This document shows positions 1 to 49,269 of a stretch of DNA of 64,000 nt, in pieces. The DNA is from Pseudomonadota bacterium (GTDB taxonomy: Bacteria; UBA10199; 2-02-FULL-44-16; DYJF01), in assembly GCA_043823065.1 (NCBI GenBank), contig JBDRBB010000003.1:74260-138259 (forward strand). The letters run 5' to 3'. The stretch's first letter is position 1, and every line of letters starts with the position of its first letter. The notes under the pieces were generated by a model. The model had not been told where the DNA came from. It saw nothing but the letters and a program-made list of their open reading frames with translations, and made no database searches. Made by a program: the position numbers and the translations under genes.

Positions 1-3000
1 GAGAACGTCTAGCTAAACTTGCTTGCAATTCTGCAGCTCTACCAAGACGAGCGATATTTTCCGGTCTGTATGCTGCCTGACTTCTTAACCTGGCATTGCG
101 CTGCATAGCATCTATGATCGGTCTACTAATGCCTCTACCTACAGCATTGGCTCCTTCCAAAGGAATACAACGCAAGGTATTGGTGTAAAGCCTGACTGCC
201 AATGGAATATGCTGACCATTTGGCAGACGTTGCTCTGGTAACCAACCTCTAGATTCAGCCAGGCTTTCGCCCCAGGTCATACCAGCCACTGCGCTGGCAA
301 AACCTAGCCCAGGAATAGTTGTACCTAAAAGCCATCTGGCTACTAAACCAGTGGCCATGTTGGTTGCAGCAATCGCGCCAAAAATAGCTAGATTAGAAAT
401 AAGCATGGTCTGCATTTCTGAATGAGAGAGGCGCTCGCCTTGAGCTGCGCGATAGCCCATCATCATGGGAATATGCAAAGCATTGAGTGTGGTGAACATG
501 GCGCCAAAACCAATTAACTGGCCAGCCCCCTGTATTAAAACTGGTGCTTCAGCCAAAGCTGCATAACCCATCCTCAGGGCAAAAGCCTCAACAGCAATTG
601 GCGCTACAATTACTGCTGGAATTAGTGCAGCCATGAAAATAGCGCCCCTGATTGAAAACATTTCATTGAGCGCCTGCATGGTACCTATATAAGCTGCGGT
701 ATTATCCTCAATTGAGGCCATGCGTTGTTGCAGAGTTACTGCTCCTTCATTTTGATAAATCACATCCATGAAATCGCGCATCTGGGCATCACCACTTAAA
801 ATTGCTGAGACGCACGCGCGTTGACTGCGGGGATAAAGGCCTGGCAACTGGGGATTAGCGTTGATCCAAGAAGCCATGGCATAGCGCATGGGAATTGCCT
901 GACCTTCTAAGGCATCATCCCGCCAGATTTCTTCGACAATTCTGCCATAAGCTTCAGCTCTAGTGTTTGGTGAATCAAACCCTTCCACATCAATAATATC
1001 AATTATATGCGGATTAACTTGTTGCAACTGGGCATACACTTCTTGTTCATCGCAATTATTGTTCTCACAATATCTAGCAATAGCCTCACGCGTGGTCATA
1101 CCTTGGTTCAACACTAAGTCACCAACACCTGCCCACACATTGCGCATATTTTCGTGTTGGCTAATAAATTGACGCTGTCTGGCACGGTAAGTGTTAATTT
1201 CCTCTTGATCACAACCATCAGCAATGGCTTCAGTAATTAATGTATCCAAATGTTGAATGTTCCATTGATAATGACCTTCAATACCTAAACGCGCCCAATA
1301 TACGCTGCGCGCCGCAGCTTGCCGTCCATCAAGCTGCAAATAGGGCTGCCAAATACTTTGCGCTAGCTGTTGATAAAGGTCTGTTTGAACTGGTTCTGGT
1401 TCTTCAGTCTGCTCAGGAAAAATTTCCACTAGTTCATCATCTGTTGTTTCTGGCTCTTCAGGCCTGCCCACTGTTTCTAAAGCTGCATAATGTTCGGCTG
1501 CTGCACCCATTCTATCTTCCAACATGGCTTGCATAAAACGGGCAAAATGCACAGCAGTCTGGCCTTCAAAGCGCCCACCAAGCTGTTCTAAATCTTGCAT
1601 GCAGGTAATTGCAAAACTAGTATAAGGAGACTCAGCATTTTCAACTGAGCGTTGATTATTAAAAGCACTAACAGCAAGTCTCACCAATTGTTGACCTTGC
1701 TCTTGTAATAAAGAAGCTTCAGCAGAACTCATTTGCTGGGTGCGATGATTTAAAACCAGACGAACTCTATTGAGAGCTGCTACTGCTCGTTCATGCTGCC
1801 CGATTTGCGCATATTGCGCGGAAATTGAATATTGGCCTTGCATCCATTCTGTTAAATCAAGTTCACCATCCAAAGCCGCGTCAAGATCTGACTCCTGCAA
1901 ATCAATTTCAAAATTATCATAGTGGGCTTCTAAATTTTCCAAAGCAGATAATAAACGCCTCTCAATGTTTTGTCTTTCTTGGGGAGTGCCCACGCGTTCA
2001 AAAACAACTCTAGCCTGATGCAGCAAGGCTAAACCTTCTTGCATGTTTAAGTTACCAGCAGAGTTTTCAACTAACCTCATACCTCCTTGGGCCCAACTGC
2101 GCAGCTCAGCTAACAGGGCAATCATTTCTTGCTCATTACCATCTCTACCTACTTGAACTGCTGTATCATAAAAAGCATCTACTCTGGTTTCAAAAGGAAG
2201 TGAGTCTGAACGCAAAAAAACTTGCAAACGATTCATGGCTTGTTCATAACTATTTTGAAAATCTTGGCCCACTTCTGAATCTGCTTGTAGCAAGCGATAA
2301 ATATCTGCCACACCCCGCAAACGCGCCAAACGAGCCATAGCATCAGGCGCTGAATCAAGATCAGCCTGAATTGCTTCAGCTGTGGTTGCTAATTCATTTC
2401 TGGCTGAAATATAATCTTCTTGAACTTCAGCTGCATTAAATTGCAGGCCTGCTCGCAATAGTTGATAATGCAACCTATCATATAGTGCGCGCTCGCCTAA
2501 ATTATCAGTGTTCTCCAAAATTGTTTGCAATTGTTGATGCCAAAAACCAACCAGATCTTGTGGAGAAAATTCCAGATCCAAAGAAATATCAGTTTCACCT
2601 AAACCATTCACCAAATCCAACAACTCTAAAGTTCTGGACACAGCAATTTCTGTAGATAATCCTGAAGAAGTTACTGTTCTGGCCCATAAATTTAGGGCAT
2701 TAGCAATGCCCTCTTGATTGCGCCTTTGATTTATTTCCCGCGTGGGAGATGGTGCATCTTCAATAATGCGGCCCATTAATTCATCAACAATTGCGGAAAG
2801 TCTTTGACAGCAATAATCGCGATTAGGTTCGTGCTCAAGCATAGCCAGTTCTGCTAAAGGCTCTAACTCTGGTATTTCCTGACTTTCCTGGCTGTTGGCT
2901 GATTGAACAACTGGCTCATCATTGGCGCCTAATCTAGCTGGCAGCGGCAAAGGTTGATGTTCAGGGGTTATCACTGCTGGCATTTGATTTAAGGCTAGAT

Positions 3001-3136
3001 ATTCACTGGCTACTTGCTCAGCCAAACTTGTTTCAGGAGTTTCTGTTTCTGGAAATTGCTCATTCAACCACAGGAAAAATTGATCATGTTCATTAAGGGG
3101 TTCTCTTAAAAATGGATTAGGGGATTGGATGCCCAT
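1..3136 (-). CDS. Large orphan helical protein with C-terminal hydrophobic segments, >1045 aa, runs off window start; zero Lys
   Basis: Absent from the ORF track because no stop lies in the window. Manual translation from ATG 3136 (SD AAAGGAG) gives MGIQSPNPFLREP... with no stop and no Lys codon down to base 2. Confidence 0.85.
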   Translation of the reverse strand, partial: MGIQSPNPFLREPLNEHDQFFLWLNEQFPETETPETSLAEQVASEYLALNQMPAVITPEHQPLPLPARLGANDEPVVQSANSQESQEIPELEPLAELAMLEHEPNRDYCCQRLSAIVDELMGRIIEDAPSPTREINQRRNQEGIANALNLWARTVTSSGLSTEIAVSRTLELLDLVNGLGETDISLDLEFSPQDLVGFWHQQLQTILENTDNLGERALYDRLHYQLLRAGLQFNAAEVQEDYISARNELATTAEAIQADLDSAPDAMARLARLRGVADIYRLLQADSEVGQDFQNSYEQAMNRLQVFLRSDSLPFETRVDAFYDTAVQVGRDGNEQEMIALLAELRSWAQGGMRLVENSAGNLNMQEGLALLHQARVVFERVGTPQERQNIERRLLSALENLEAHYDNFEIDLQESDLDAALDGELDLTEWMQGQYSISAQYAQIGQHERAVAALNRVRLVLNHRTQQMSSAEASLLQEQGQQLVRLAVSAFNNQRSVENAESPYTSFAITCMQDLEQLGGRFEGQTAVHFARFMQAMLEDRMGAAAEHYAALETVGRPEEPETTDDELVEIFPEQTEEPEPVQTDLYQQLAQSIWQPYLQLDGRQAAARSVYWARLGIEGHYQWNIQHLDTLITEAIADGCDQEEINTYRARQRQFISQHENMRNVWAGVGDLVLNQGMTTREAIARYCENNNCDEQEVYAQLQQVNPHIIDIIDVEGFDSPNTRAEAYGRIVEEIWRDDALEGQAIPMRYAMASWINANPQLPGLYPRSQRACVSAILSGDAQMRDFMDVIYQNEGAVTLQQRMASIEDNTAAYIGTMQALNEMFSIRGAIFMAALIPAVIVAPIAVEAFALRMGYAALAEAPVLIQGAGQLIGFGAMFTTLNALHIPMMMGYRAAQGERLSHSEMQTMLISNLAIFGAIAATNMATGLVARWLLGTTIPGLGFASAVAGMTWGESLAESRGWLPEQRLPNGQHIPLAVRLYTNTLRCIPLEGANAVGRGISRPIIDAMQRNARLRSQAAYRPENIARLGRAAELQASLARRS

Positions 3137-4242: not shown

Positions 4243-5595
4243 TTACTTCTTGCTATTATGATGCGCTTCTAATGAAGCAGCTCTAGCCTTCCAGGTGAAC
4301 AAGAATAAAAACGTGCCAATCACTGCCGCTGCTATAAAGAAGATAAACCCTCCATCCCAGCCCCATTTATCAACAACTAAGCCGGTTCCTACACCGCAAA
4401 TAGCGCTGCCAACATAACCAAAAGTTCCGGTTAAGCCAGTGGCTGTAGCAGCAGCTCTCTTTGAAGCAAAATCAGCAGCAGCAACACCAACCAGCATTTG
4501 CGGACCATAAATCAAAAACTTAACTGCAACCAAGTAAATAGTAGCAAGCACCTGGCTACCTACTGGAACCTTCCAAAGTCCAAATATAGCGGCAATTACA
4601 AGTATCATAAAAATAACATTAACCGGCCCTCTTCTACCTTTGAACAAAGTATCAGAAAACCAGCCAGCGCCAATTGCCCCAGCAATACCAACAACTTCAG
4701 AAATCGCAGTGATAATACCAGCATTCATCAGAGAAGCGCCCTTGGCTTCCACCAAAAACGTGGGCGCCCAATCTAAAACACCAATTCGCACAATATAAAC
4801 AAAAATATTGGCAAAACAAATGATCCACAACAGTCTGTTTTTTATAATATATTGAAAAAAGATCTCTTTAAAAGAAGCTGCATTATCATCACATTCATGA
4901 TCATCGCATTTGGCATCACCTCTATGTTTCTCCACAGGCGGCAAACCCATAGACTGCGGAGTATCGCGCAGCATGACCATTAAAAATATAGCTGAAACAA
5001 CAGCGATTGCTGCTGGCACAAAAAATGCCGAACGCCAGCCATAATGTGGAATTAACCAGCCAGCCAAGATCAAAATACCAGCGCCGCCAACTTGATGCGA
5101 AGCATTCCAAATTCCCCATTTTGTTCCAAGTTCAGTTGGCGAAAACCAGTGCGTTAAAAGTCTAGCGCAAGGAGGCCAACCCATTCCTTGAAACCAGGCA
5201 TTAGCTATCCAAAATACGCCAAAGAAAATCATCGAGGAAGAAAGACCAAAGGCTATGTTCATAAAAGCGGAAAGGATTAACCCCAAGGCCATAAAATAGC
5301 GGGCATTAGAACGATCTGACAACATCCCGCTGCAAAATTTAGAAACACCATAAACAATGGAGAACAAGGTAAGAATTAAACCTAAATCTGTTTTGGTGTA
5401 ACCTAGTTCTGACAAGAAATACGGCATAGCCATGGAAAAATTTTTTCGGCAGAAATAAAACATGGCGTAGCCAAACATCATTGAGGTTAAAATTTGGAAA
5501 CGCCATTTTTTATATTCTTTTTTGATTTTTGCTTGATCGGTAATAATTGGAGCAGGTGGCTGAGCAGCCAAACAGGAAAGCATATTTTTAATCAT
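4243..5595 (-). CDS. MFS organophosphate:Pi antiporter family transporter (UhpC/UhpT/GlpT-like)
   Basis: GYAMFYFCRKNF, FQGMGWPPC, WNASHQVGG, YGPQMLVG motifs; 12-TM pattern. Confidence 0.9.
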   Translation of the reverse strand: MIKNMLSCLAAQPPAPIITDQAKIKKEYKKWRFQILTSMMFGYAMFYFCRKNFSMAMPYFLSELGYTKTDLGLILTLFSIVYGVSKFCSGMLSDRSNARYFMALGLILSAFMNIAFGLSSSMIFFGVFWIANAWFQGMGWPPCARLLTHWFSPTELGTKWGIWNASHQVGGAGILILAGWLIPHYGWRSAFFVPAAIAVVSAIFLMVMLRDTPQSMGLPPVEKHRGDAKCDDHECDDNAASFKEIFFQYIIKNRLLWIICFANIFVYIVRIGVLDWAPTFLVEAKGASLMNAGIITAISEVVGIAGAIGAGWFSDTLFKGRRGPVNVIFMILVIAAIFGLWKVPVGSQVLATIYLVAVKFLIYGPQMLVGVAAADFASKRAAATATGLTGTFGYVGSAICGVGTGLVVDKWGWDGGFIFFIAAAVIGTFLFLFTWKARAASLEAHHNSKK

Positions 5596-5691: not shown

Positions 5692-5751
5692 TAATTACCG
5701 CTGCCGCATATCTCTGATAATTGGGTGCAATCTACTGTCATCTGGATCAAC
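5692..5751. repeat. 60-bp direct repeat, copy 1 (3' end of 2051-aa gene)
   Basis: 58/60 identical to 11871-11930; first 39 bp identical. Confidence 0.9.
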
Positions 5752-8700
5752 GGCACGAATGCGAATTGGTTCATCAGCTCTAATTGCCTCATCATCTATA
5801 AAAGCACCGCTGCCGTTAAGAGTAATATTAAATCTCCAACGAGCCTCTGGCGTTTCCAGATTTGGCATTCTAGCGAAAATTTCCGGATACTCCCCTTCTA
5901 AACGTTCCAAAGAATATACCACACTATTGCCATCAGATGCTCTGACATCTCTATATCTATTTCTAAAAAGATGTAATCTTGCAGCTTGGTGGGCAATTAA
6001 TCTGCGTTCATTTTCCACCACTGTGTCACTAGCCCTAACCTCATTAACTAAATTACGAAATGCCTGGGCATAGGCTTCAAATCTATCTCGCATGATATCT
6101 GGATTGATTCCAGCTTGACTACCTGCAATAATATCTCGCATTAGATCATACCCAAGCACAATAGCTTTACCGCCGGTGATTTCATCTTCCGGATCATATA
6201 AATCAAATTCTTGATTGCATACATTAGATGAGTTTACAAATTCTCTAAATTGAACGTCATTTTCCACATTGGGATGATTCTCAGCTATATCCACCATACA
6301 ATCCCAAGCGCCTAAAAATACCTCATTAGCTATATGTTCATATTCAAAATAATTGTTTTGAGCTGGTCCTAAAACATTATCCAGAATATTCCAACTAGTA
6401 TCTATTTCATGCGAAATGGCAAAAACATCTCCCCCCAATCCCCAACTTGATCTCATAGGGCTGTAACTAAAAAATACACCTGGCTGAACAACATCACTAA
6501 AGCGATTGACTACTCTGGCTATTGGATCTGTTTCTGGGACTCTGTCTCCATCCAGCTCACTGATAAATGTTTCAAAACCATTGATACCATTACGGTAGGG
6601 TGGAAAAATAGCAGCCGGAATTCCATTGGCAAAAAAACCTAAAACATAACCAACAGATCTGGCTATTGGCGTATCATAGCCCAAAGGAGATTGGATATAG
6701 GGCCAAATGATCATGGCTGCTATGCCGTAGTTCAGAGCACGCTGAACACGTTGATATTCAGGATCACCGTTACTGGTATGCTGAAAAATTCCATAATTCA
6801 TGCCATAAGCTGCGCCCATTAAGAATGGCGCAGTCATGGCAGCGCCGCCAAAAGTATAGCGAGGAGTACTAAGCGTTCTACCCCTAAACACATTTAACCT
6901 TTCTCCACCCAAAACCAGATCATCAGCAAATTCCTGGCGAGCAGCATGCCAAAAACGATTGCCTTGAATCTCATAGCCCAAATCATCTAGATGTTGATCT
7001 AGCAATTCTCTATTTCTGACGTGTCTTCTAGCTGAACCAGCATAGGCGCGCTGAAATTCATTTACTGTTAAACGCCTGGCACCAAAGGCTATATCCCCTC
7101 TAAAACCATTAGTGGAATGAATCAGCCTGTTACTAGTAGCATCCCAACGCAAATTACGACTCAAGAGCCATTCTTGCGTGACTTGAACATTATTGAACCA
7201 GAAACTGGCATTTTCCCCTTGCCCCTGCACTCTAATATCATTGGCATAGGTTCTGAACCAGTCCCGCAGAACTGGCACGCGGCCCCAAGGAGAAGTATTA
7301 AAAAGACGCGGCGATTCAATCACAGTGTTTGGCACAAACTCTCCATAGTCACCTATGAATGCCCGTTCTGTTCTATAAAGCTGGCCGCCATCATGTCTAT
7401 TCCATCTATAACCCATTTGCCTTAAAGCAGTTGGTGTGATTTGCCTACCATCTAATTCAAAAATCTCTCTACCAGATTCTTCTCTAACTCTTAACTGAGT
7501 ACTACGCATTACCTCTCTAGAAGCAACGCTATATACTGAAGCAATATTTTCCACTCTGTTAGGCACAACTTCTTCCCTAAGTGGACTTAGCAATCTATGA
7601 GTTTTATTGTCCCAAAGATAACTAGTCCTTCTTTGCAATGCTCCTCTGCTCATTGCCTGGCCATCTAAGATAAATCTTGGCCTGTCTAAGCGGCCAAGCA
7701 CCACTTCTAAATTTTGCTCTACATTGGTTCTGGAATTGGTAATTGTATACGAAATGCGCCCAGGTCTATGAGCATCACTTCTTTCCAAAAAAACTGGAGG
7801 TGTTCGGCTAGTACCAGCTTCCCATTGATAACCTAATTGTTCTAAGGCTTGCGCTTCAACTTGGTTGCCATTTAAGTAAAATCTGGTTTGCCCGTTACCA
7901 ACTTGAACCCTAAGCATATTAGGTTCACCAGCAAAACCTTCTAGATCATAATTTCTAGAATTATTTGCACCATCTCTGAATGCTATTCTATTACCCCTGG
8001 CATCTAGCAATTCATTATTTGTCCATCGATAACCATTTCTACGCAAAAATGAAGCAGGAATTTGCTGGCCATTTAATTCAAATATAGGTCTTCTGCCATT
8101 AAATCTAACTTGCAGAGAATATTGAGGAGCAACAGGAGCTTGGATATTATAAAGGCGATCTCCATCAATTATGGTCGGCGCTACTCTTGATGATTGCACG
8201 TTAAAAACATGTCTTGAAATCGGATCCCATACATGACCGATTTCCAATAATCGCTGATTTAATTGAGCTTCTGTTATTTCTTGCCCATTTAGTCTAAAAC
8301 TGTACCCGCGCCCAAAACCATTATTATTTACTTCTAAACGAACCGGTGTGGCATCTGCTGAATGAGAGTTTTGAATCAGCTCATAGGTACGCAATCTTCT
8401 GGTAGCGCTTATTGGTGTAATTTCGGCTGGTCCGTATCTTTCATAAGTGGCACCTGGGCCACCAGTTAATAAGCCAGCATTCACTCCACTTTGCATATTT
8501 CTTAAGCCAGGCATTCTTTGAGATAAAGCAATCAATCTTCTACCCAACGGGAAACCCATGAGAAAAGCCCGGCCGCGCAAGATAGTCATGATCGGCACAC
8601 TAGAGCCTTGAGTTTCTGCGGCAAAAGACATGAGTCTGCGTTGATATTGGGCATCATCATAAAAACCACGAAAAGGATTTTGCCCACCTTGCCACAACAT

Positions 8701-11700
8701 AATTGCTTCTGTGCCAATCTTAAAAGGCAAAGCAACAATAATACCTAAGGCATTTACACCAGTAATTCTGCCGGTTAAAATTGCCAAACCAGCAGCACCG
8801 CCAGCACCACCAACAATATTATTTAATTCAGGCCATTCACCATCTAGCAGCGGTTCTCCAGCCAAATCAAGTCCCATCGCGCCCCCAGAATAGAGTAAAT
8901 ATCGCCTCATGGCCGGCTCCATCTGAGACCAATCATATCTGACAAAAAGTCCAGCTGTGAGAAGCAAGCCAACATCACCTACCCAAGAATTTTCATTTAT
9001 AATTCTAACTTGCTCCTCGCCCATTCTATCAGTATATTCCACTCTCCTGGCCAAACCCAGACCCAAAAAATCACCGCTAGAGATCAAATAGCTGTTGGCC
9101 CAAATCATATCCTGGCCTAAAAAGAAGGCATCAGCAGCATAACCTTGGTATAGAAGATTATACAAATTAGCTGAATACATTGACTGGGCTGTTCTTTGAG
9201 CCAGACCCATTCTAATTCCAGTATGCAAACCACCAGAAACAGCAAGCATACCACCAGCAGCGCGCATATAAAAACCTAAGTCCTCATCAAGATAATCAGC
9301 CGGATAACCTGCTAGATGCAGGCTTAAACCTGCGCCTAAGCGCCATTGTTCGCCGTAAGAAAGATAAGCCCTGACTTCTCCGAGATTATTCCCAAATATC
9401 CTACTTAACTGACCAGAGTTTTGCATAGCCCCTCTTAAGCCTTGCTGGGCAAAAAGCCATCGGCCACTATTTAGGGCACCTCTACCCAAGCCAGTAACTA
9501 ACACTCTACCAAAAAGAAAAGCTGGTCTGGCTAATAAGCCGGCATTAAGCATATTCAAACCAGTCATCACCCCAAAGGTGACCACATTACGAAAAGCTTG
9601 CTCAGAAGTTATATCAGATGAACCACTAATCTGCGCCCTTTCAATTAAATCCAAATTGGCTACAATATTTTGACCTGTATTGGCTGCTGAACCAAGGAAG
9701 GCGCATCCTGCAGCAGCAAGACCCAAACCAATACCGCTCCAGCCAAAAACCAAAGCGCCAACAGCATAACAACCTAAACCGCTAGCTGCTGGTATGCCAA
9801 AATCCCGCCAAGGATTGCCGGTCATTAAATAATCAGACATGGTATACCAATAGGCTTGCTCACCTTGAGGAGTGCCTGTAAAATCTCTGTCAACTAGATT
9901 GCCATCTTGGTCAAAAAGTTGCGGCTGATTTTGTCTTAAATCATGTTCTATATGCTGAAACAAAGGCGTAGAAACAATACCTTGCCGACCAGAGTTGCCA
10001 TCTATTAATCGCAGATCAAACCTTCTAATATCAAATAAGTCTGGAACTGTCGGCAATTGCGGTTCACTTTCATCTTGCCCTGGATTATCAATTAAAAAAG
10101 AATTTGCATCTGAAACAATATTTCGATTTGCTGTTCTGGAAAAATTAGATCTATCGTTAGAGTCTGTATTAAAAGCCAACAAAACATCATTGTCAGCAAA
10201 AGGATCAGTTAACAAAAAACGCAGGTTTTCTATTGCTTCTGGAGACCTATTGGCAGCTCTAGGTCCGTTAATAAAAAGACTCAGTACAGCTTGGGTATAA
10301 TGAGCATATAATGGATCATTCTCTTCAAGCGTTACCTCACTTTGAATTATATCTTCATAATCTTGAACCATATTAGCCAGCTGATTAAAGGCCAGCTCAA
10401 TTTCACTATTGTTGTGTTGTTGCGCCAATTGGGAAAAGATACCGCCACCCATGCGCAACCCCTGACTATCAACCTCGCCCCGAGCAGTATGGATGTTAAT
10501 TACTTGGTTTAGGGTTTGGCCCAAAATCCTCTTGGTAGCAACTGAAGCATTCTGAGAATTTTCAATTAAAGCACCAAGTTGTCTTTCTAAACCTCTTAAG
10601 CGCTCGTCTAGCAACAAGCTCTCTTCTGTGCTTAAATCTGGATTAGCAAACCGCAAATACGCATGACCTGTATAAAGTTGGCTTAAGGTTAGAGCTTCCA
10701 CCTGTTCTAATAATTCTAAATTGCCGACAGTAAAACTAACCTCTTGCAAATATGAGTTAAGCTCTTGGACACCACTATCTCTCAGCTCAGGATCAATATT
10801 TTCAAAGCCACTTAAAACAGAAAGAACTTCCTCCAAGTTATCTATAGTAACACCTTCTTCGCCTGTTATATCATTAATAGCGGACAATAATTCCTGAAGA
10901 TCATTTAAGCTCCCCAGCTCTTCTCGCAACGCCCTTATCTCTTCTAAAGCGCGTCTAACTTGGAAATGGTTATTAGAATCAAGATCTATTTGCAAAGACT
11001 GCAATCTATACCAAGCAGTAGCCATAATATTTTGGGCATTATCAATTGCTGCTTCATAATATTGTTGGCTCTGTTCAGAAGCACGAATAACTCTATAGGC
11101 ATCAGCAATCATTGCTGCTTGTTCTGAAGAAAGAGCTCTGCGTGCGTCATCAATATTTTCTTCATTAATTTCTTGGCCTAAAAAAGCTGTTAAAAATGCT
11201 CTATCCAATCGATTTAAATTGGCAGACCATCTCTGTTCCAAGGTTCGAACACTTCTTTCTAATTGTTCCACCCTATCTTCAGTTTCAGCAACTTGACTTC
11301 TTAAGATCATTAGATAGCTAGCGTTATCTGCCTGGCCAAAACCATCTGCATAAGCATCTGTCATTGCTTCATTTCTCATCTCTCTATCTAACTGCTGTCT
11401 CTGCTCTTGCAACAATTGCCTGCTGGTTAGCAAATTTCTTCTTTGAGCTTGAAGTTCTTGCAGGGCATCCTCGTCAACATCAAATAATTCCAAACCATAT
11501 TCAAAGATTTCGCCTAAAACAGCAGCGCTATCTGCATGCTCTGCATTTTCAACAAACAACTCTCTTAAGCTGGCTGCTGCTATTTCAAAATTTTCCTGAA
11601 GTTGAACTTCAGTTAATTGATTTAGATCAGTTGGTTCTAAACGGTCTTCGTGATTTGGAGTTGCTGTTGTTGGTTGTTCTAATAATTGGGCAAGTCGTCT

Positions 11701-11850
11701 TGACTCTCTTTGAAATAATTCCTCATATCTAGCATGATCTATATTAGCTGGCATGGACATGGTTGGCTCTGGCGTGGCCAACCATTCAAATAGATTTTCT
11801 CGATTACCCTCGCCAAACACTTTCAAGCGAGATTCGCCATTGGCAATCAT
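5695..11850 (-). CDS. Giant orphan protein (2051 aa): coiled-coil N-domain, Gly/Ala-rich multi-TM core, Arg-rich repeat domain; paralog 1 of tandem array
   Basis: Long ORF with SD AAAGGGGAG; 5 Lys; blocks shared with 11874-17009 and 17179-18900. Confidence 0.9.
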   Translation of the reverse strand: MIANGESRLKVFGEGNRENLFEWLATPEPTMSMPANIDHARYEELFQRESRRLAQLLEQPTTATPNHEDRLEPTDLNQLTEVQLQENFEIAAASLRELFVENAEHADSAAVLGEIFEYGLELFDVDEDALQELQAQRRNLLTSRQLLQEQRQQLDREMRNEAMTDAYADGFGQADNASYLMILRSQVAETEDRVEQLERSVRTLEQRWSANLNRLDRAFLTAFLGQEINEENIDDARRALSSEQAAMIADAYRVIRASEQSQQYYEAAIDNAQNIMATAWYRLQSLQIDLDSNNHFQVRRALEEIRALREELGSLNDLQELLSAINDITGEEGVTIDNLEEVLSVLSGFENIDPELRDSGVQELNSYLQEVSFTVGNLELLEQVEALTLSQLYTGHAYLRFANPDLSTEESLLLDERLRGLERQLGALIENSQNASVATKRILGQTLNQVINIHTARGEVDSQGLRMGGGIFSQLAQQHNNSEIELAFNQLANMVQDYEDIIQSEVTLEENDPLYAHYTQAVLSLFINGPRAANRSPEAIENLRFLLTDPFADNDVLLAFNTDSNDRSNFSRTANRNIVSDANSFLIDNPGQDESEPQLPTVPDLFDIRRFDLRLIDGNSGRQGIVSTPLFQHIEHDLRQNQPQLFDQDGNLVDRDFTGTPQGEQAYWYTMSDYLMTGNPWRDFGIPAASGLGCYAVGALVFGWSGIGLGLAAAGCAFLGSAANTGQNIVANLDLIERAQISGSSDITSEQAFRNVVTFGVMTGLNMLNAGLLARPAFLFGRVLVTGLGRGALNSGRWLFAQQGLRGAMQNSGQLSRIFGNNLGEVRAYLSYGEQWRLGAGLSLHLAGYPADYLDEDLGFYMRAAGGMLAVSGGLHTGIRMGLAQRTAQSMYSANLYNLLYQGYAADAFFLGQDMIWANSYLISSGDFLGLGLARRVEYTDRMGEEQVRIINENSWVGDVGLLLTAGLFVRYDWSQMEPAMRRYLLYSGGAMGLDLAGEPLLDGEWPELNNIVGGAGGAAGLAILTGRITGVNALGIIVALPFKIGTEAIMLWQGGQNPFRGFYDDAQYQRRLMSFAAETQGSSVPIMTILRGRAFLMGFPLGRRLIALSQRMPGLRNMQSGVNAGLLTGGPGATYERYGPAEITPISATRRLRTYELIQNSHSADATPVRLEVNNNGFGRGYSFRLNGQEITEAQLNQRLLEIGHVWDPISRHVFNVQSSRVAPTIIDGDRLYNIQAPVAPQYSLQVRFNGRRPIFELNGQQIPASFLRRNGYRWTNNELLDARGNRIAFRDGANNSRNYDLEGFAGEPNMLRVQVGNGQTRFYLNGNQVEAQALEQLGYQWEAGTSRTPPVFLERSDAHRPGRISYTITNSRTNVEQNLEVVLGRLDRPRFILDGQAMSRGALQRRTSYLWDNKTHRLLSPLREEVVPNRVENIASVYSVASREVMRSTQLRVREESGREIFELDGRQITPTALRQMGYRWNRHDGGQLYRTERAFIGDYGEFVPNTVIESPRLFNTSPWGRVPVLRDWFRTYANDIRVQGQGENASFWFNNVQVTQEWLLSRNLRWDATSNRLIHSTNGFRGDIAFGARRLTVNEFQRAYAGSARRHVRNRELLDQHLDDLGYEIQGNRFWHAARQEFADDLVLGGERLNVFRGRTLSTPRYTFGGAAMTAPFLMGAAYGMNYGIFQHTSNGDPEYQRVQRALNYGIAAMIIWPYIQSPLGYDTPIARSVGYVLGFFANGIPAAIFPPYRNGINGFETFISELDGDRVPETDPIARVVNRFSDVVQPGVFFSYSPMRSSWGLGGDVFAISHEIDTSWNILDNVLGPAQNNYFEYEHIANEVFLGAWDCMVDIAENHPNVENDVQFREFVNSSNVCNQEFDLYDPEDEITGGKAIVLGYDLMRDIIAGSQAGINPDIMRDRFEAYAQAFRNLVNEVRASDTVVENERRLIAHQAARLHLFRNRYRDVRASDGNSVVYSLERLEGEYPEIFARMPNLETPEARWRFNITLNGSGAFIDDEAIRADEPIRIRAVDPDDSRLHPIIRDMRQR

Positions 11851-11870
11851 ATACTCCCCTTTCTAGAGCT

Positions 11871-11930
11871 TAATTACCGCTGCCGCATATCTCTGATAAT
11901 TGGGTGCAAGCTGCTGTCATCTGGATCAAC
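11871..11930. repeat. 60-bp direct repeat, copy 2 (3' end of 1711-aa gene)
   Basis: Encodes VDPDDSxLHPIIRDMRQR-stop in both genes. Confidence 0.9.
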
Positions 11931-14900
11931 AGGAGGTGATAGCCTACGTCTGTTGGCTATAATAGTTTCTCTAGTTATACGTGCTCCGCTACCATTGAGT
12001 TCAATGAAGAAATTATCTCTTTCTTCTTGGCTATCCAAACTTTCAGGGATACGCTCAAATAAAACTGGATAATCATCTATAATCTGTTGGCATTCTTCAA
12101 CAAACGAGCCCCCAATAGATTCATGGTTATTAACAATGTACCTAATAATTGCAGCTTGAAATCCAGCAAATCGTAATTGATCTGTGGTTGTTGTTTCATT
12201 TCTTCTAATCTCTTCTAATGTTAAACGCACTCCCCTTGCATAAGAACTTAGTATATCCCCCATATTACCATGAAGTTCTTCATTCATACTATTTAACATT
12301 ACGCGAACATCGTCTGGAACCCTATGTTGCCTGGCCGCTTGTGAAGCATCTACACCATTTGACAGAGCCATCAGATAATCAATAGCTTCAACTGTAGTTG
12401 AATATGCTGGCTCTTCATATTCACGATTATTACCAACTGTTTGACCATAAAAATCTAAAAGGTTATAACTAGTTCCCATGCTATGCAAAATAGCGGAAGC
12501 TTCTTCCCAATCATCTTCTCCTAACTCATTAACAAAGCTTCCAAAACCAGGGATACGATCTCGATAAGGCGGGAACAAAGCTGCAGCGCCCATAATAACC
12601 GGAATACCCAACAAACCACAGATAACACGCGCCCTGCCAGTATCATAGCCAAGAGGTGATTGAATATAGGGCCAAATTACCAAAATTGCCGTAAGATAAT
12701 TTAAAACACGCTGCATTGGTTGATATTCTTCATCACCGCTACAAGTTTTTCTAAAAACATGGTTCTGAGTTAGCCAGACAGTTGGCCCTAAAATGGCCGC
12801 AGAGATAAGTGAAGAAATAGGTCTAAATTGTTGAGTTGCAAGTGTTCGGCCAGTTGATACAGTATTACGATAGCCACCTAAATTCAAGGTGCCAACATTT
12901 TCACTGCTACTGGCATGCGCCCTCACCCAAACCATTCTGCCATTTAATCTTCCACCTATCCTCACTTGAAAGGTGCGATAAATTGGAGTATTCAGTTCTC
13001 CTAAAGAAGCGTTTTCCAATATCTCCAGACGTTGGAGATTTTCCAGGCTGGCTCGCACAAAACGATCTCCGTTTACTGTCCAACCTTGATCTCGAATCAT
13101 CTGATCAGCGCGCTCACGTGCAGGACCAGTCATTCCTCTATATTCCCTGGGAGTTATGTTACGCCCAGCTATTTGTATCTCACTTTGAAATCTGGGTTCA
13201 AGCTGATACAAAACACTATTCCGTAAAACATAACCCTGTTCAACAAGCTCAGCTTCTGTAAGATATCGTCCATTCAAAGAATAGCGTTGTTGGGGAATTC
13301 TTGGATTATCATTGATGCGTAGCACATCACTACTTCTACCACCTCTGTCAACTGTATAGGTTCGTGAACCTGGATTTCCCAAACCACTTCTTATCCACTT
13401 ATCTGGAAATAGTCTTCTAGCGCCAACATTATTCAGGGCAATGCCAGCGCCACCTAATCCAGGCAGCTGGCCAATGTTGATCATGCTTGGCATATTTCTT
13501 AAAACAGGAATTCTATTTGCAACACGCAAAATATTCCTACCAAGCGCAAATCCACCTAAAAAGTTATTTCCTCTCAATATCCACATGATGGGAATACTAA
13601 TACCAATGGTCTCCACAGAAAAAGACCAAATACGACCAGGATCTGGACCGGTAATCGGCCGGCCTGCTTGCCATTGCATTAAAACTTCATTAGCAATTTT
13701 TATAGGCAAGTACCAAATCATGCCAGCACTACTTACACCAGTTAAACGGCCTGCTAAAATCGAAATGGCAACACTTCCACTAGCGCCACCTAACAAAGAA
13801 TTAACTTCGCCGTCTGATGCCCAGTCCAGCCCAACCCCCAAAGCTCCTGCAGGCAGAAACATTTGTTGTCCAAAACTCATGTTTGGAAAATCATAACGCA
13901 AAAATGCTCCACCTGCTAAAAGCACTCCAGCTGTTCCAACCCAGGTATCTGCGCCAATTCGTGGCTGTTCATTAGGACCTCTTGGAGGTTGAATAAGACC
14001 TAAACCATTGATATGATCTGGAAAAGGCAAACCATTGACAGTTCCAACAAAATCCGTGGATAAGAATCCATTTTCATCTGGCACAATTAAATAACGATCA
14101 GCCATATAAATATTAGTGCCGGCTAGAACAGCAAAATTAGCCCATCCTCCAGCAGAAGCATTCATAGCAGTTAAAGTTTCTTCTGCTATTACTGCCCGAA
14201 GGGGCACATGAGCAAGACCTGCTAAAGAAAGCGCTAAGCCAGATTGACGCAGATAAAAACCAGTATCACCATCTACATAATGACCAGCACCATATAATGA
14301 GCCACCAGCAACAATTTCTCCCGCGTTTAAACCATAGAGAATTTGTTGATTAAGCGGCAAAGCCCTATACCAACTAGCTACTTCTCCACCTACAGCACCC
14401 ATGCCTCTTAAAGCGCCAACGGGATTTAGTGCTGTAGCTAGACTACCTTCATTAGCTGCTAACCAAACTCGATAACCATTGCCGATATTGTAAATACTGG
14501 CACCAAAAAATTGACGCATTCCCCGGCCAATCGGACCAACAAACCTGCCATTAATTACAGCATTGACACTGGTAGTAACCCCAAAAGTAACCCAATTGCG
14601 AAATTCTTGTTCTTCAGTAATTTCCGACATGCCTGTTATTTCAGATTGGCGAATGGTATCATAATTCATGGCAATATTGACACCGCTCCTGCCTAAAAAC
14701 ACTGCTGTTCCACAAGCCCCTGCAGCTACAAAAGTGCCTACACCCGTCCAGGATTCTGGTAAAGCTGCCATACAAACCGCAGAAGCAAGTGCTGGTAAAC
14801 CAAACTGCCAAAAATCATTGCTAATTAAGTAATCAGATAAAGTTCTCCAGTAGGCATCATCACCGCGTGCAGTACCTGTAAAGTCTACGTCTGGCAATAA

Positions 14901-17009
14901 TTCACCATCATCATCAAAAAGATGCGGTTGTTCTTCACGTATATTCTGATTGATATTCTGTAAAAGTTGAGTATGCGCTATTCCTGGGCCGACTCCTCCA
15001 CCATTAATTAAATGCAAGTTCAGTCTTCGAATATCAAAGTTCGAAGGGACTTCTGGTGGATTAACATTTGGCTCTGGTTCTGATCGATCATCATCAATAT
15101 AAAAATGTCCATCAGATATCGTTCTGTCTTGTCTCACAAGACGTGAGTCAGGGCCTAGACCAGCAGATTTTGACGGCAAATCTCGTGTAGCTTGATTGAA
15201 TGCTAACAAAACACCTCTATCTTCAACCAAGTCCGCAGAAGATGGATCATTCAAATAACGTAAATTACGCAGAGCATCCTGCTGACGATTTACAGCTCTC
15301 ACCCCATTAACAAATAATTTAGTAACCACCCCCGCATATAAAGAATACAAAGGATCATTTGGCTCCTCTGTAATATGATTCTGAATTATGTCTTCATAGA
15401 ATAAAATTGCGTTTCCCAAACGTTGAAACACATCTTCAATTCCTTCATCATCATGTTCAGCATGGAGTTGTGCAATTATTCCACCACTTTCCCGCATACC
15501 ATCGCTACGCACTGCTCCGCGGGCTGTATATAAACTCATCATTTGATCCAGCATTTGCCCCCAAAGCCTAGCTTCTAAATCTGAGGCTAAATTGGCTCTA
15601 GTACGCATACGCTCTACCAATGTATCTTCTAGCGCTCTTTGTTGATTATCTAACAGATCGGTTTGCGCTTCACTCAAATTTTCCTGAGCATAACGCGCAA
15701 ACAGAGTACCACCATATTGTAAATGCAAGGCCAGGGCATCAATTTCTTCAATCATTTGCGGATCACCAATCATAACCTGCAATTGTTGGGCAAACATCTG
15801 CAACTCATAAGTCAGTTGTTCAATCTGACCAGCTTCTTGAGCTTGTTCTATAAATTGAAGAATATTTAGAATAGTATCGGGATCGACAGCTTCGTTTTCC
15901 AAACTACGTAGATAAATTTGTAGTTGCTCAAGTGCCTGGAAGGCACCTTCTGGATCTTGGTCTTCAACAAACACTTGAAGCTCTTGAACTAGCTCCATAA
16001 TCTCTCCACTAGAGCGAGAAATTAGACGCAGTTCATCTAAATTACTTCTAATATCTGCCACTTCACCAATAGCAAGCGTTACCAGTGATGCATCTTGGGA
16101 TTCCATATCCATTTGATAGGCCTGCAACTGATACCAAAGCCCAATCGTAACATTTGGCGCATTATCTATTGCTGCTTCATAATACTCGCGAGCAATATGA
16201 GTAGCACGAATAGCCCGCAAGGCATCGGCAAAGGTTGTTGCATATTGCAAAGGCAAGTCTTGTCGATATTGTTGCCTTAGTTCTGGATCAGGATTAAAAT
16301 CTTCAAATATTTCTTCAAAAATATCTTCTTCTAAAGCTAAAATATTTTCTGTAAACCTATCTTCTAATTGTTCTATCTCCCTTTCTATTTCCGTATGTTG
16401 ACTTTCCAAAGTAGAGATTCTGGTACGCAATTGAGTTTCAAATGAATCTCCTTGCGTCATATTAAACCCATCGGCATAAAAACTTGACATCATATCATTT
16501 CTTCGTTCTCTAACTAAGTCCGCACGTGCTTGTTCAAGCTCAGTTTGTTTTTCTCTTAAACGACGTCTGGCATCTTGTAGATCCTGATATGATCCTCGAA
16601 TATTATGAACGATGGCGCCACTGGCAAAAACAAGACTAACTGCTTGAGCAAATTCCTCTTGATTTTCTGTAACCATCGCTAATTGTAAATTTGTTAATCC
16701 TGACTCAAAATTGGCTATACTTTCTTCTAGGTTTATTTGATTTTCTTGCTGGTTTTGTTGATTTGGTTGATTTACTGAGTGGTTGGGATTTCTTGAATAA
16801 AGTTGAATAATGCTGTTGGTATAATTTATTTGGTGTTCAAAATGTTCAAGCTGATTTAATAGTCGTTCTTCAAAATGGCTTTGATCTATGCTTGCCGGCC
16901 TAGCCATTATTGGGCCGGATCTAATGCCGGGTGGACTTTGCTCTAAATGTGCGAGCAGCTCATTGGGTCGGCAAAAAAATTCTAAGCGAGATTCGCCTCC
17001 GGAAAACAT
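11874..17009 (-). CDS. Giant orphan protein (1711 aa), paralog 2 of tandem array
   Basis: Shares GESRL, YYEAAIDNA, WPYIQSPLGYDT, FPPYR, LNGSGA and the C-terminal tail with paralog 1; 6 Lys. Confidence 0.9.
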   Translation of the reverse strand: MFSGGESRLEFFCRPNELLAHLEQSPPGIRSGPIMARPASIDQSHFEERLLNQLEHFEHQINYTNSIIQLYSRNPNHSVNQPNQQNQQENQINLEESIANFESGLTNLQLAMVTENQEEFAQAVSLVFASGAIVHNIRGSYQDLQDARRRLREKQTELEQARADLVRERRNDMMSSFYADGFNMTQGDSFETQLRTRISTLESQHTEIEREIEQLEDRFTENILALEEDIFEEIFEDFNPDPELRQQYRQDLPLQYATTFADALRAIRATHIAREYYEAAIDNAPNVTIGLWYQLQAYQMDMESQDASLVTLAIGEVADIRSNLDELRLISRSSGEIMELVQELQVFVEDQDPEGAFQALEQLQIYLRSLENEAVDPDTILNILQFIEQAQEAGQIEQLTYELQMFAQQLQVMIGDPQMIEEIDALALHLQYGGTLFARYAQENLSEAQTDLLDNQQRALEDTLVERMRTRANLASDLEARLWGQMLDQMMSLYTARGAVRSDGMRESGGIIAQLHAEHDDEGIEDVFQRLGNAILFYEDIIQNHITEEPNDPLYSLYAGVVTKLFVNGVRAVNRQQDALRNLRYLNDPSSADLVEDRGVLLAFNQATRDLPSKSAGLGPDSRLVRQDRTISDGHFYIDDDRSEPEPNVNPPEVPSNFDIRRLNLHLINGGGVGPGIAHTQLLQNINQNIREEQPHLFDDDGELLPDVDFTGTARGDDAYWRTLSDYLISNDFWQFGLPALASAVCMAALPESWTGVGTFVAAGACGTAVFLGRSGVNIAMNYDTIRQSEITGMSEITEEQEFRNWVTFGVTTSVNAVINGRFVGPIGRGMRQFFGASIYNIGNGYRVWLAANEGSLATALNPVGALRGMGAVGGEVASWYRALPLNQQILYGLNAGEIVAGGSLYGAGHYVDGDTGFYLRQSGLALSLAGLAHVPLRAVIAEETLTAMNASAGGWANFAVLAGTNIYMADRYLIVPDENGFLSTDFVGTVNGLPFPDHINGLGLIQPPRGPNEQPRIGADTWVGTAGVLLAGGAFLRYDFPNMSFGQQMFLPAGALGVGLDWASDGEVNSLLGGASGSVAISILAGRLTGVSSAGMIWYLPIKIANEVLMQWQAGRPITGPDPGRIWSFSVETIGISIPIMWILRGNNFLGGFALGRNILRVANRIPVLRNMPSMINIGQLPGLGGAGIALNNVGARRLFPDKWIRSGLGNPGSRTYTVDRGGRSSDVLRINDNPRIPQQRYSLNGRYLTEAELVEQGYVLRNSVLYQLEPRFQSEIQIAGRNITPREYRGMTGPARERADQMIRDQGWTVNGDRFVRASLENLQRLEILENASLGELNTPIYRTFQVRIGGRLNGRMVWVRAHASSSENVGTLNLGGYRNTVSTGRTLATQQFRPISSLISAAILGPTVWLTQNHVFRKTCSGDEEYQPMQRVLNYLTAILVIWPYIQSPLGYDTGRARVICGLLGIPVIMGAAALFPPYRDRIPGFGSFVNELGEDDWEEASAILHSMGTSYNLLDFYGQTVGNNREYEEPAYSTTVEAIDYLMALSNGVDASQAARQHRVPDDVRVMLNSMNEELHGNMGDILSSYARGVRLTLEEIRRNETTTTDQLRFAGFQAAIIRYIVNNHESIGGSFVEECQQIIDDYPVLFERIPESLDSQEERDNFFIELNGSGARITRETIIANRRRLSPPVDPDDSSLHPIIRDMRQR

Positions 17010-17135: not shown

Positions 17136-17161
17136 TTATCGCTGGTTATGAAAAAAGTTGC
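17136..17161 (-). promoter_or_regulatory. Putative sigma28-like promoter GCAAC-N15-CGATAA
   Basis: Minus strand taaGCAACttttttcataaccagCGATAA, 127 nt upstream of ATG 17009; same motif at four other orphan-region genes. Confidence 0.6.
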
Positions 17162-17178: not shown

Positions 17179-18900
17179 TTAGGAAAGCCCTAAATATGCT
17201 AAAAACGAGGAAATTATTGTTTGATCTGCATTTGAGGCTGGTGCCATATTTACAGCCACAGGCGTTGCCACTGGCTGACTGGTTCTATTGGCAAAAAGAT
17301 GCGGATTTTCAGTTCTAAAAGTTTCAATATTGTTTTGGTAGGAATTAGTTACGGTAATATCAAGGCGTTCAACTGGTGGGCAACATAAAAGTTCGCCAAG
17401 AGCTGAAGCGCTAAACATACCTTCTATACCATGGTCCAGCGCAGTATGATTTACATGTTGGATATATCTTAAATTGTTAAGGGCTATATCTGGTAAGTTT
17501 ACTCTTCTTGGAGCTTCCACAAAGGTCATATACATAACATCTGAAAAATCTTCAAAAATAGAATCCCCTGTTGTAGGGGACATATGTGGTCTAACCAGAT
17601 CGGCAGTTGCGTTAAATCTAGCAATTAAACTTTGATATATTCTATTAGCATCTCTTAAACCATACGAGCTTTGACCTAAAAGTTGCATTACATAATTTAA
17701 CCATCCAGCTGGACGAAATGAGCTATCTATTCTACCCTCACGCAAAGCATAAACAGCAGCAATGCGCCGCATATTCTGCATAAAAGATTCACTCTCTTCT
17801 CTGGATGCCTCTCCACTTCTGGAACCAACCATAGCATCATACTCTTCTTCTAAATCTACCATTCTTGAGTCATACAGGGTCATTTCAGATTCAGAAATAT
17901 TTCTACCATAACGTAAAAAACTCATACCTTCATATAACAAACCCCAGGATTGAACGCTCAGATTATGCAAAGTTTGATTTTCTTCAGCAGTATGTGAATT
18001 TCTCAATTCTCCCGCAATAGATTGCCTTAAAGTTTCCAAACCAGAAACAGCATTTCTGATTCTAACAGAATCATTAGAATTAATATCTATTCTTAAGGAA
18101 GCTAATCTACTGGTGTCTCTTAAAATAATGTCTGCTGAATCTCTTTGGGCCACCAATTCATATAATCTTTGCGCTGCTCTTGGTGAATGATTCTCCTCAA
18201 AAAACTCTGCCAAGGTAACAGCGTCTTCATTGGAAAGCAAATTTCTATATTCTTCAATTGTGGAATAACCTTGGCCAAATCTTGCAACCAAAATTTCTTG
18301 TTCAAGTTGATCAACCGATTGTTCCCACCGTTGTTCCCGCATCGACACTACCGTTCTTTGTTGAGCTATCAATTCACTGACTATTCCCCAGTCATTAGCA
18401 TCTAGTTCACCTCTTAGCTCACTGCCACGTCTTCTAAGTTCATTATAGTTTCTACGACTAGCACAAATTACCTGATAATCATCTTCACTAATTTGAAAAT
18501 AATTCTCACCAGCATCTAAAACATTTTGTAATCCTGCTGAATCCGCAACAGACATCCTAAAAACTGATATTGCATCATCAAACTGTTGGGCACATTGATC
18601 ATCTTGCAAAATTATTGGCGGAATTTCTTCTGCCATTTCTTCTAGTTCTATTATTTGTTGATTTTCTGTTTCTTGAATTCTTGGTCTTGGTGGGGGGGCT
18701 GGATTTGGTCTTGGTTCTATGTAAATATCGTTGGGATGTGTGCGGGGTGTATAATTATTTCGTCCAACTTCCCCGCTTCTTTCAATTTCAAAATTAGGTT
18801 GTATTCTGGGGTTATTGAGTTGGCCTGGAGAACCGGGGGGGGTTCTGTTTGGGTCAACTCCTTGGTGAATTCCTTGAATACCTTCTCCACCTACATGCAT
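17179..18900 (-). CDS. Orphan protein (573 aa), short paralog 3 matching the N-terminal helical domain; zero Lys
   Basis: LYEGMSFLRY..., FVEAPRRVN..ALNNLRYI align with FVNGVRAVN..ALRNLRYL and FINGPRAAN..AIENLRFL of paralogs 1-2. Confidence 0.85.
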   Translation of the reverse strand: MHVGGEGIQGIHQGVDPNRTPPGSPGQLNNPRIQPNFEIERSGEVGRNNYTPRTHPNDIYIEPRPNPAPPPRPRIQETENQQIIELEEMAEEIPPIILQDDQCAQQFDDAISVFRMSVADSAGLQNVLDAGENYFQISEDDYQVICASRRNYNELRRRGSELRGELDANDWGIVSELIAQQRTVVSMREQRWEQSVDQLEQEILVARFGQGYSTIEEYRNLLSNEDAVTLAEFFEENHSPRAAQRLYELVAQRDSADIILRDTSRLASLRIDINSNDSVRIRNAVSGLETLRQSIAGELRNSHTAEENQTLHNLSVQSWGLLYEGMSFLRYGRNISESEMTLYDSRMVDLEEEYDAMVGSRSGEASREESESFMQNMRRIAAVYALREGRIDSSFRPAGWLNYVMQLLGQSSYGLRDANRIYQSLIARFNATADLVRPHMSPTTGDSIFEDFSDVMYMTFVEAPRRVNLPDIALNNLRYIQHVNHTALDHGIEGMFSASALGELLCCPPVERLDITVTNSYQNNIETFRTENPHLFANRTSQPVATPVAVNMAPASNADQTIISSFLAYLGLS

Positions 18901-19064: not shown

Positions 19065-19091
19065 GCAACTTTTTTAAACTATAAGCGATAA
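19065..19091 (+). promoter_or_regulatory. Putative sigma28-like promoter GCAAC-N16-CGATAA
   Basis: taaGCAACttttttaaactataagCGATAA, 28 nt upstream of ATG 19119. Confidence 0.6.
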
Positions 19092-47050: not shown

Positions 47051-47077
47051 TTATCGGTCATTTTTTATTAATGTTGC
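47051..47077 (-). promoter_or_regulatory. Putative sigma28-like promoter GCAAC-N16-CGATAA
   Basis: Minus strand GCAACattaataaaaaatgacCGATAA, 64 nt upstream of ATG 46987. Confidence 0.6.
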
Positions 47078-49241: not shown

Positions 49242-49269
49242 GCAACTTTTTGTAGCAAGAAACCGATAA
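49242..49269 (+). promoter_or_regulatory. Putative sigma28-like promoter GCAAC-N17-CGATAA
   Basis: GCAACtttttgtagcaagaaacCGATAA, 74 nt upstream of ATG 49343. Confidence 0.55.

Follow-up and report, generated by a model that had tools for sequence, protein, structure and literature searches.

Gene conversion between duplicated genes is known from tufA and tufB of Salmonella and Escherichia coli. The very end of a protein may also be a signal in its own right, as it is in substrates of type IV secretion systems (T4SSs), whose C-terminal signals include the Arg-rich tails of the Agrobacterium VirB/D4 system and the E-block tails of the Legionella Dot/Icm system. In Helicobacter pylori, the 3′ segments of the outer-membrane paralogs babA and babB, and likewise those of homA and homB, are described as evolving in concert by intragenomic gene conversion (PMC3960876, citing Pride and Blaser 2002). 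The locus considered here lies in a stretch of 64,000 nucleotides (nt), called the window in what follows, which covers positions 74,260–138,259 of contig JBDRBB010000003.1 (assembly GCA_043823065.1) from an uncultured Bdellovibrio-like bacterium, the genome of which is represented by a 1.89-Mb, 27-contig assembly with an estimated completeness of 95.8%. Two adjacent genes for giant proteins of an uncharacterised family, P0001 (2051 amino acids (aa); window positions 5695–11850, reverse strand) and P0002 (1711 aa; 11874–17009, reverse strand), end there in a nearly identical stretch of 60 nt, which is likely to be a short, non-reciprocal gene-conversion tract between tandem, anciently duplicated genes and not the product of strict nucleotide constraint.

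The two copies form a direct repeat and match at 58 of 60 nt (97%), as returned by a repeat finder (its family D3) and confirmed by direct reading of both stretches. Copy 1 (5692–5751, reverse strand) comprises the last 19 codons of P0001 (VDPDDSRLHPIIRDMRQR preceded by A) along with the stop codon TAA and 3 nt of the adjoining 3′ flank, and copy 2 (11871–11930, reverse strand) comprises the last 19 codons of P0002 with its own TAA and 3 nt of flank. On the coding strand, the copies read GTT GAT CCA GAT GAC AG[T/C] AG[A/C] TTG CAC CCA in their first half and ATT ATC AGA GAT ATG CGG CAG CGG TAA TTA in their second, and thus encode VDPDDS[R/S]LHPIIRDMRQR followed by the stop and three more bases; P0001 ends in ...AVDPDDSRLHPIIRDMRQR and P0002 in ...PVDPDDSSLHPIIRDMRQR, each directly before the stop. 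Of the two mismatches, AGT/AGC is synonymous (Ser) and AGA/AGC changes the residue (Arg/Ser); they fall in the least conserved codons, at a distance of 3 nt from each other. The longest exact run between the copies is 39 nt, and only these two copies are present in the whole 1.89-Mb genome. A first-pass annotation of this DNA had already reported the match, synonymous sites and stop included, and on this point it is fully borne out.

The match is far beyond chance. Across the rest of the P0001/P0002 alignment, 280 of 583 identical degenerate residues (48%) also agree in their codon, whereas in the tail 15 of 16 do so (binomial 1.5e-4). A Poisson-binomial calculation based on the codon usage of the genome gives 2e-6 when the post-stop TTA is counted as Leu, and an estimated value of about 1e-5 without it. 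Rare codons are common to both tails, namely CGG (7% of Arg codons), which is present twice, GAC (17%), ATC (18%) and CAC (24%), and the stop codon and the 3 flanking nt are identical as well. The next-best 20-codon window of the pair reaches 45/60 nt, the mean being 30 with a standard deviation of 5.6. The observation is real and statistically solid. That a metagenome assembler made or misplaced the shared tail might be suspected in a 27-contig metagenome-assembled genome, yet this is highly improbable: the copies differ at two positions and are therefore not a collapsed repeat, the exact run of 39 nt is below the final k-mers of most assemblers, and P0001 would have been lost through a false join at the repeat instead of being put in a frame-perfect tandem. 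Moreover, a ribosome-binding site belonging to P0001 itself follows the repeat at 8 nt, and the transporter gene downstream of it fits the synteny of the closest genome with a homolog (G002) and of others.

When the rest of the two genes is considered, P0001 and P0002 prove to be homologs over their full length, with 34% identity over ~1300 aa and 32% over ~430 aa in BLASTP, and 39% identity over 1599 positions when aligned; the first-pass annotation was thus wrong in granting them no more than scattered blocks of similarity. G002 belongs to the same GTDB family and to another genus, and encodes a single giant protein of 2004 aa, the gene for which is located between a 715-aa gene and a gene for a major facilitator superfamily (MFS) transporter, in a frame of neighbours like that of the window. 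P0001, to which this gene is orthologous, is 42–43% identical to the G002 protein, and P0002 is 33–35%, or by a second figure ~34–37%, identical to both. In a maximum-likelihood tree of 12 family members, P0002 branches outside the other two, as (P0002,(P0001,G002 protein)), with 100% support in the Shimodaira–Hasegawa-like approximate likelihood ratio test (SH-aLRT). Over the whole gene, the informative nt sites of a three-way codon alignment group P0001 with G002 in 958 cases, P0002 with G002 in 697 and P0001 with P0002 in 661 (28.5%). In the last 19 codons the grouping is reversed, with 20 sites for P0001 and P0002, 3 for P0001 and G002 and none for P0002 and G002 (binomial p 9e-9); in the 57 nt of the tail within this alignment, P0001 and P0002 agree at 53, P0001 and G002 at 36, and P0002 and G002 at 33. 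Alignment of the three gene ends also reveals sharp edges, as identity is at background directly upstream of GTT GAT and 3 nt past the stop.

Within the tract, the paralogs are therefore closer to each other than the orthologs are, in contradiction to the tree for the remainder of the gene, their identity reaches synonymous and non-coding positions, and the edges are discrete, with background divergence outside. That 20 of the 23 informative tail sites contradict the gene tree (p ~9e-9) lends good support to the view that gene conversion or recombination has recently affected the gene ends, one of the explanations put forward in the first-pass annotation. Because the tree pairs P0001 with G002 and the tail sites pair P0001 with P0002, the genes must have been duplicated before the two genera split, and the identity of the tails must have arisen afterwards; and since the tails keep only 36/57 and 33/57 nt in common with G002, the nucleotides of the tail are free to drift between genera.

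The following course of events would account for these relationships. The duplication giving P0002 and P0001 is older than the split from the genus of G002; long after it, the end of one copy, consisting of the last 19 codons with the stop and a few bases of flank, would have been pasted onto the other. Such an event would have been made possible by the tandem, co-oriented arrangement of the genes on the same chromosome at a spacing of 6.2 kb, and was probably seeded by the pre-existing similarity of the conserved C-terminal motif, whilst the two clustered differences may be later substitutions or the outcome of patchy heteroduplex repair. Whether the exchange proceeded by RecA-type conversion or by template switching, in which direction it went and what function the tail may have are matters of inference. 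Some points weigh against this reading. The tail is carried by three proteins only (P0001, P0002 and the G002 protein), and one genome represents this genus. RecA-type exchange usually requires 20–30 nt of identity, for which the flanks, at ~50% nt identity, are too diverged. Finally, the helix modelled for the tail by AlphaFold 2 (AF2) is of low confidence, with a predicted local distance difference test (pLDDT) score of ~50–59, so that the docking role discussed below is without structural support. A metagenome scan for closer relatives re-found the G002 organism only, and the same was true of a poorly designed degenerate DNA motif representing the end of the tail.

Other candidate events at this locus were set aside. 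An apparent excess of P0001–P0002 sites at residues 31–49 is a misalignment resulting from the longer N-terminus of the G002 protein, and not a conversion tract. Codons 5–9 (G-E-S-R-L) of both paralogs share 14 identical nt, GGCGAATCTCGCTT, synonymous sites included (window 11825–11838 and 16984–16997), the G002 ortholog having GCA GAA ACT CGT TTT at these codons; this stretch is too short for a second conversion tract to be called. A Campbell-type integration of a circular P0001 cassette via the tail was likewise rejected, as the resident gene of G002 is the ortholog of P0001 and not of P0002, and as the tails of donor and recipient would have been too diverged.

P0001 and P0002 are arranged head to tail, 23 nt apart (11851–11873, reverse strand), and this gap holds, with the stop of P0002, TTA, AGCTCTAG and the ribosome-binding site of P0001 (AAAGGGGAG). 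Its composition bears on a different origin of the tail, namely grafting: a recent tandem duplication of P0001, followed by the in-frame illegitimate deletion of nearly all of the upstream duplicate, would have fused the body of P0002 to the last 57 nt of that duplicate, and the present spacer would be the duplication junction. Grafting of this kind would yield the same structure and does not need long homology in the diverged flanks, and the spacer after copy 2 (TTA-AGCTC-TAG-AAAGGGGAGTAT) does resemble the 3′ flank of P0001 (TTA-GAACAA-AGCTC-ATG) joined to its 5′ flank; beyond the tail, the 3′ flank of P0001 is GAACAAAGCTCATG. However, the AGCTC match amounts to just 5 nt, the original ancient tandem duplication predicts the same spacer structure, and two rare events would have to combine with a junction that is exactly in frame and falls right where the conserved VDP motif begins. 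Grafting is thus an unlikely origin of the shared tail, and short-tract conversion is the reading that we retain.

Selection could also act on the nucleotides themselves, be it through a 3′-terminal RNA element in each cistron, a binding site for a small RNA or a protein, or a recombinase site, and the identity does take in synonymous positions as well as the stop and the 3 nt that follow it. Even so, constraint of this type is very unlikely. Taken with their flanks, the tail copies fold no better than shuffles (z +0.5, −0.7, +0.9), Rfam yields no match to the tail at E ≤ 1, and no promoter-like or terminator-like site is present in either copy, so that neither structure nor a known RNA family marks the tail as a structured RNA element or an intrinsic terminator. 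Furthermore, the G002 ortholog keeps only 36 of 57 nt, the genome holds only two copies, and no recombinase gene is found among the neighbours examined; viral contigs lack the exact 33-mer, a result that speaks against a phage attachment (att) site. The RNA signal under strict constraint that the first-pass annotation had named as an alternative to gene conversion thus lacks a stable fold, an Rfam match, promoter or terminator sites and conserved nucleotides alike.

The same annotation had also proposed a C-terminal translocation signal, and had pointed to the basic signals of T4SS substrates and to the end of the tail. On this reading, the tail would be a signal for a T4SS or a similar machinery, its identity reflecting that function. 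The last six residues, RDMRQR, are indeed net basic; over the whole tail this is not the case, as four Asp stand against four Arg. A signal of this kind would also be in keeping with lysine-poor orphan proteins that contain moderately hydrophobic segments, like some injected effectors. However, neither VirB4 (PF03135) nor a VirD4-type coupling protein (PF02534) was detected in the 95.8%-complete genome, where controls matched, nor was the sheath of a type VI secretion system (T6SS), and the one FHIPEP gene of the genome is the flagellar export gate alone. When all open reading frame (ORF) ends of the genome are considered, the tail motif is confined to the two paralogs, and none of the ~65 other lysine-poor ORFs (at least 250 aa, less than 1.2% lysine) carries it. 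Similarly, a search with the 25-residue tail peptide against 93 genomes of the class returned this genome's two genes only, the 92 others being without it, so that the proposed search for further proteins with this ending came back empty; the signal is thus not common to unrelated substrates. With the machinery not detected and the tail on no other ORF, a T4SS signal is therefore unsupported and, in our view, extremely unlikely, and a function at the protein level could not explain the synonymous identity in any case. Judging by these searches, the tail is not a general export tag.

A possible function of the tail is better approached from the family to which both proteins belong. In P0001, an N-terminal part with coiled coils and a C-terminal domain of helices are accompanied by hydrophobic blocks rich in Gly and Ala and by ~7 internal LNG...GYxW repeats, and the protein contains 5 Lys and 183 Arg. 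Relative to P0002, it has an extra repeat-rich insert: its residues ~1150–1620 (window ~7000–8400) comprise ~7 copies of a ~65-aa module, F-x-LNG-x-x-[IV]-x(5-9)-L-x(3-5)-GY-x-W, of which P0002 has ~2 copies, and this explains most of the difference in length between the two. The final LNGSGA immediately before the tail resembles a truncated copy of this module. At residues 684–723 (window 9682–9801), P0001 also shows a Gly/Ala-rich stretch of 40 residues without charged or polar-amide residues, FGIPAASGLGCYAVGALVFGWSGIGLGLAAAGCAFLGSAA, which is bilobed, moderately hydrophobic and of the sort found in proteins inserting into foreign membranes; several such blocks occur in the family. The latter is rare, with 47 representatives among 1.84 billion in a search with a profile of the C-terminal domain. 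The two giants have no match in Pfam beyond noise, even at E ≤ 5, and none among PDB sequences below E 0.05; Foldseek finds no match to the C-terminal model in the PDB at E ≤ 0.001, and a word-indexed search of 5.8 billion proteins with the C-terminal part of P0002 returned only the two proteins of the window.

With respect to composition, the genome encodes ~65 ORFs of at least 250 aa with less than 1.2% lysine, versus a genome median of 7.3%; examples in the window are 2–3136, 5695–11850, 11874–17009 and 17179–18900. The G002 ortholog is as lysine-poor as P0001, and most other family members are not (2–10% lysine). Several giant genes of the family, in tandem or close to one another, are also present in G001 (L025, 7302–12074 and 14104–18786) and in G004 (L028, 1203–9047, 9290–14608 and 14759–17704); in both genomes, their C-termini are not homogenised.

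Most family members end ~15 residues past a W-x-x-F-x-x-x-VNGG motif, in a conserved end of the NFYFDPHM type. In P0003, P0010, P0011, P0014, P0015, P0028 and P0039, for instance, the end motif is W-x-D-F-I-x-Q-VNGGR-x-x-x-S-NFYFDPHM(H/Q). P0001, P0002 and the G002 protein instead extend from a VDP or VDL that aligns to FDP, by 13–16 residues ending in DMR-x-R, with the consensus VD-x-x-D-x-x-x-x-P-[IV]-I-x-DMR-x-R; the tail of the G002 ortholog is still recognisable (AVDLQDDRDVPAVISDMRRRRQ). The tail is a clade-specific extension or replacement of the conserved extreme C-terminus of the family. Since the NFYFDPHM-type end is kept in most members and the G002 tail remains recognisable, the extreme C-terminus seems to matter to the family. 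AF2 models the last 412 aa with a mean pLDDT of 58.5 and the tail as a short helix of low confidence. Both paralogs may dock the tail peptide to the same partner, or may fold it back in the same way, and either of these would make a converted tail tolerated or even favoured.

Turning to the surroundings of the two genes, neither a promoter nor a terminator was found in the 23-nt gap, and P0002 and P0001 are probably transcribed as one unit, because the gap is so short and lacks a terminator. Upstream of P0002 lies a promoter-like motif, GCAAC-N16-CGATAA (17136–17161, reverse strand), and no GCAAC...CGATAA motif precedes P0001. The more general pattern GCAAC-N14-18-CGATAW has five exact matches in the window versus 0.16 expected (17136–17161, 19065–19091, 47051–47077, 49242–49269 and 60161–60187), each of them upstream of an orphan, lysine-poor gene unit. 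The 573-aa protein encoded next to P0002 (17179–18900, reverse strand) is free of lysine, as is a neighbouring protein of 1045 aa. With 25% identity to P0002 residues 419–591, the 573-aa protein is a weak relative of the giants in their N-terminal part, and it corresponds to the 715-aa gene that lies upstream of the ortholog in G002. Neither the 573-aa nor the 1045-aa protein has a match in NCBIfam. A TPR protein is encoded nearby as well, at 19119–20759.

Directly downstream of P0001, a gene encodes an organophosphate:phosphate antiporter of the MFS, of the UhpC/GlpT/PgtP type (4243–5595, reverse strand). A UhpC/GlpT-type antiporter adjoins a giant gene in six genomes from several genera, that is, in the window (4243–5595) and in five others (L023, 9378–10772; L024, 11262–12680; L025, 18842–20050; L026, 5511–6809; L027, 2279–3637), and this association suggests that the giant membrane protein is functionally linked to the uptake of phosphorylated sugars. 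Because the tail copies are direct repeats, the 2051-aa gene could also be lost or amplified without leaving a scar, and deletion of P0001 by recombination between them, across the exact run of 39 nt, would be possible in principle.

A bolder proposal, which we regard as improbable, is that the tail serves as the address label of an undescribed delivery or assembly route, in which a dedicated partner would recognise both lysine-poor, giant, membrane-active proteins by this one C-terminal peptide. The setting would be a Bdellovibrio-like bacterium of reduced genome without a type III secretion system (T3SS) injectisome, a T4SS or a T6SS, with giants co-transcribed from a putative alternative-sigma promoter and invariably linked to a UhpC-type sugar-phosphate antiporter. 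If this were true, conversion would keep the paralogs matched to their partner while the rest of each protein diversifies.

In its own terms, the probable conversion event is of an ordinary kind, and the locus is a small and clear-cut bacterial case of concerted evolution over a short tract. It also calls for caution, since local nucleotide identity between old paralogs need not imply an RNA or DNA signal. For these orphan giants, the extreme C-terminus is the one part that the two copies are made, or permitted, to share, and it thus offers an entry point to the family.

Compared with T4SS signals, the tail is likewise a short, unstructured C-terminal peptide with Arg near its end; unlike them, it comes with no detected machinery, is found on two paralogs only and has as many acidic as basic residues. 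As in tufA and tufB, non-reciprocal exchange would keep duplicates identical within one genome; there, however, nearly the whole of a gene of the same function is homogenised, whereas here the exchange is limited to the last 19 codons of paralogs that are ~35% identical. The closest described case is that of babA/babB and homA/homB in H. pylori, as far as the account cited at the outset describes it: in these pairs, too, the paralogs are mostly diverged and their 3′ ends are alike within a genome, against the relationships between genomes. The H. pylori segment is long and encodes a membrane domain in its entirety, its loci are scattered over the genome, and repeated events are documented by many strains, whereas here a tract of ~60 nt joins adjacent genes, otherwise saturated at synonymous sites, in one genome. 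The two cases are thus the same in kind and differ in scale.

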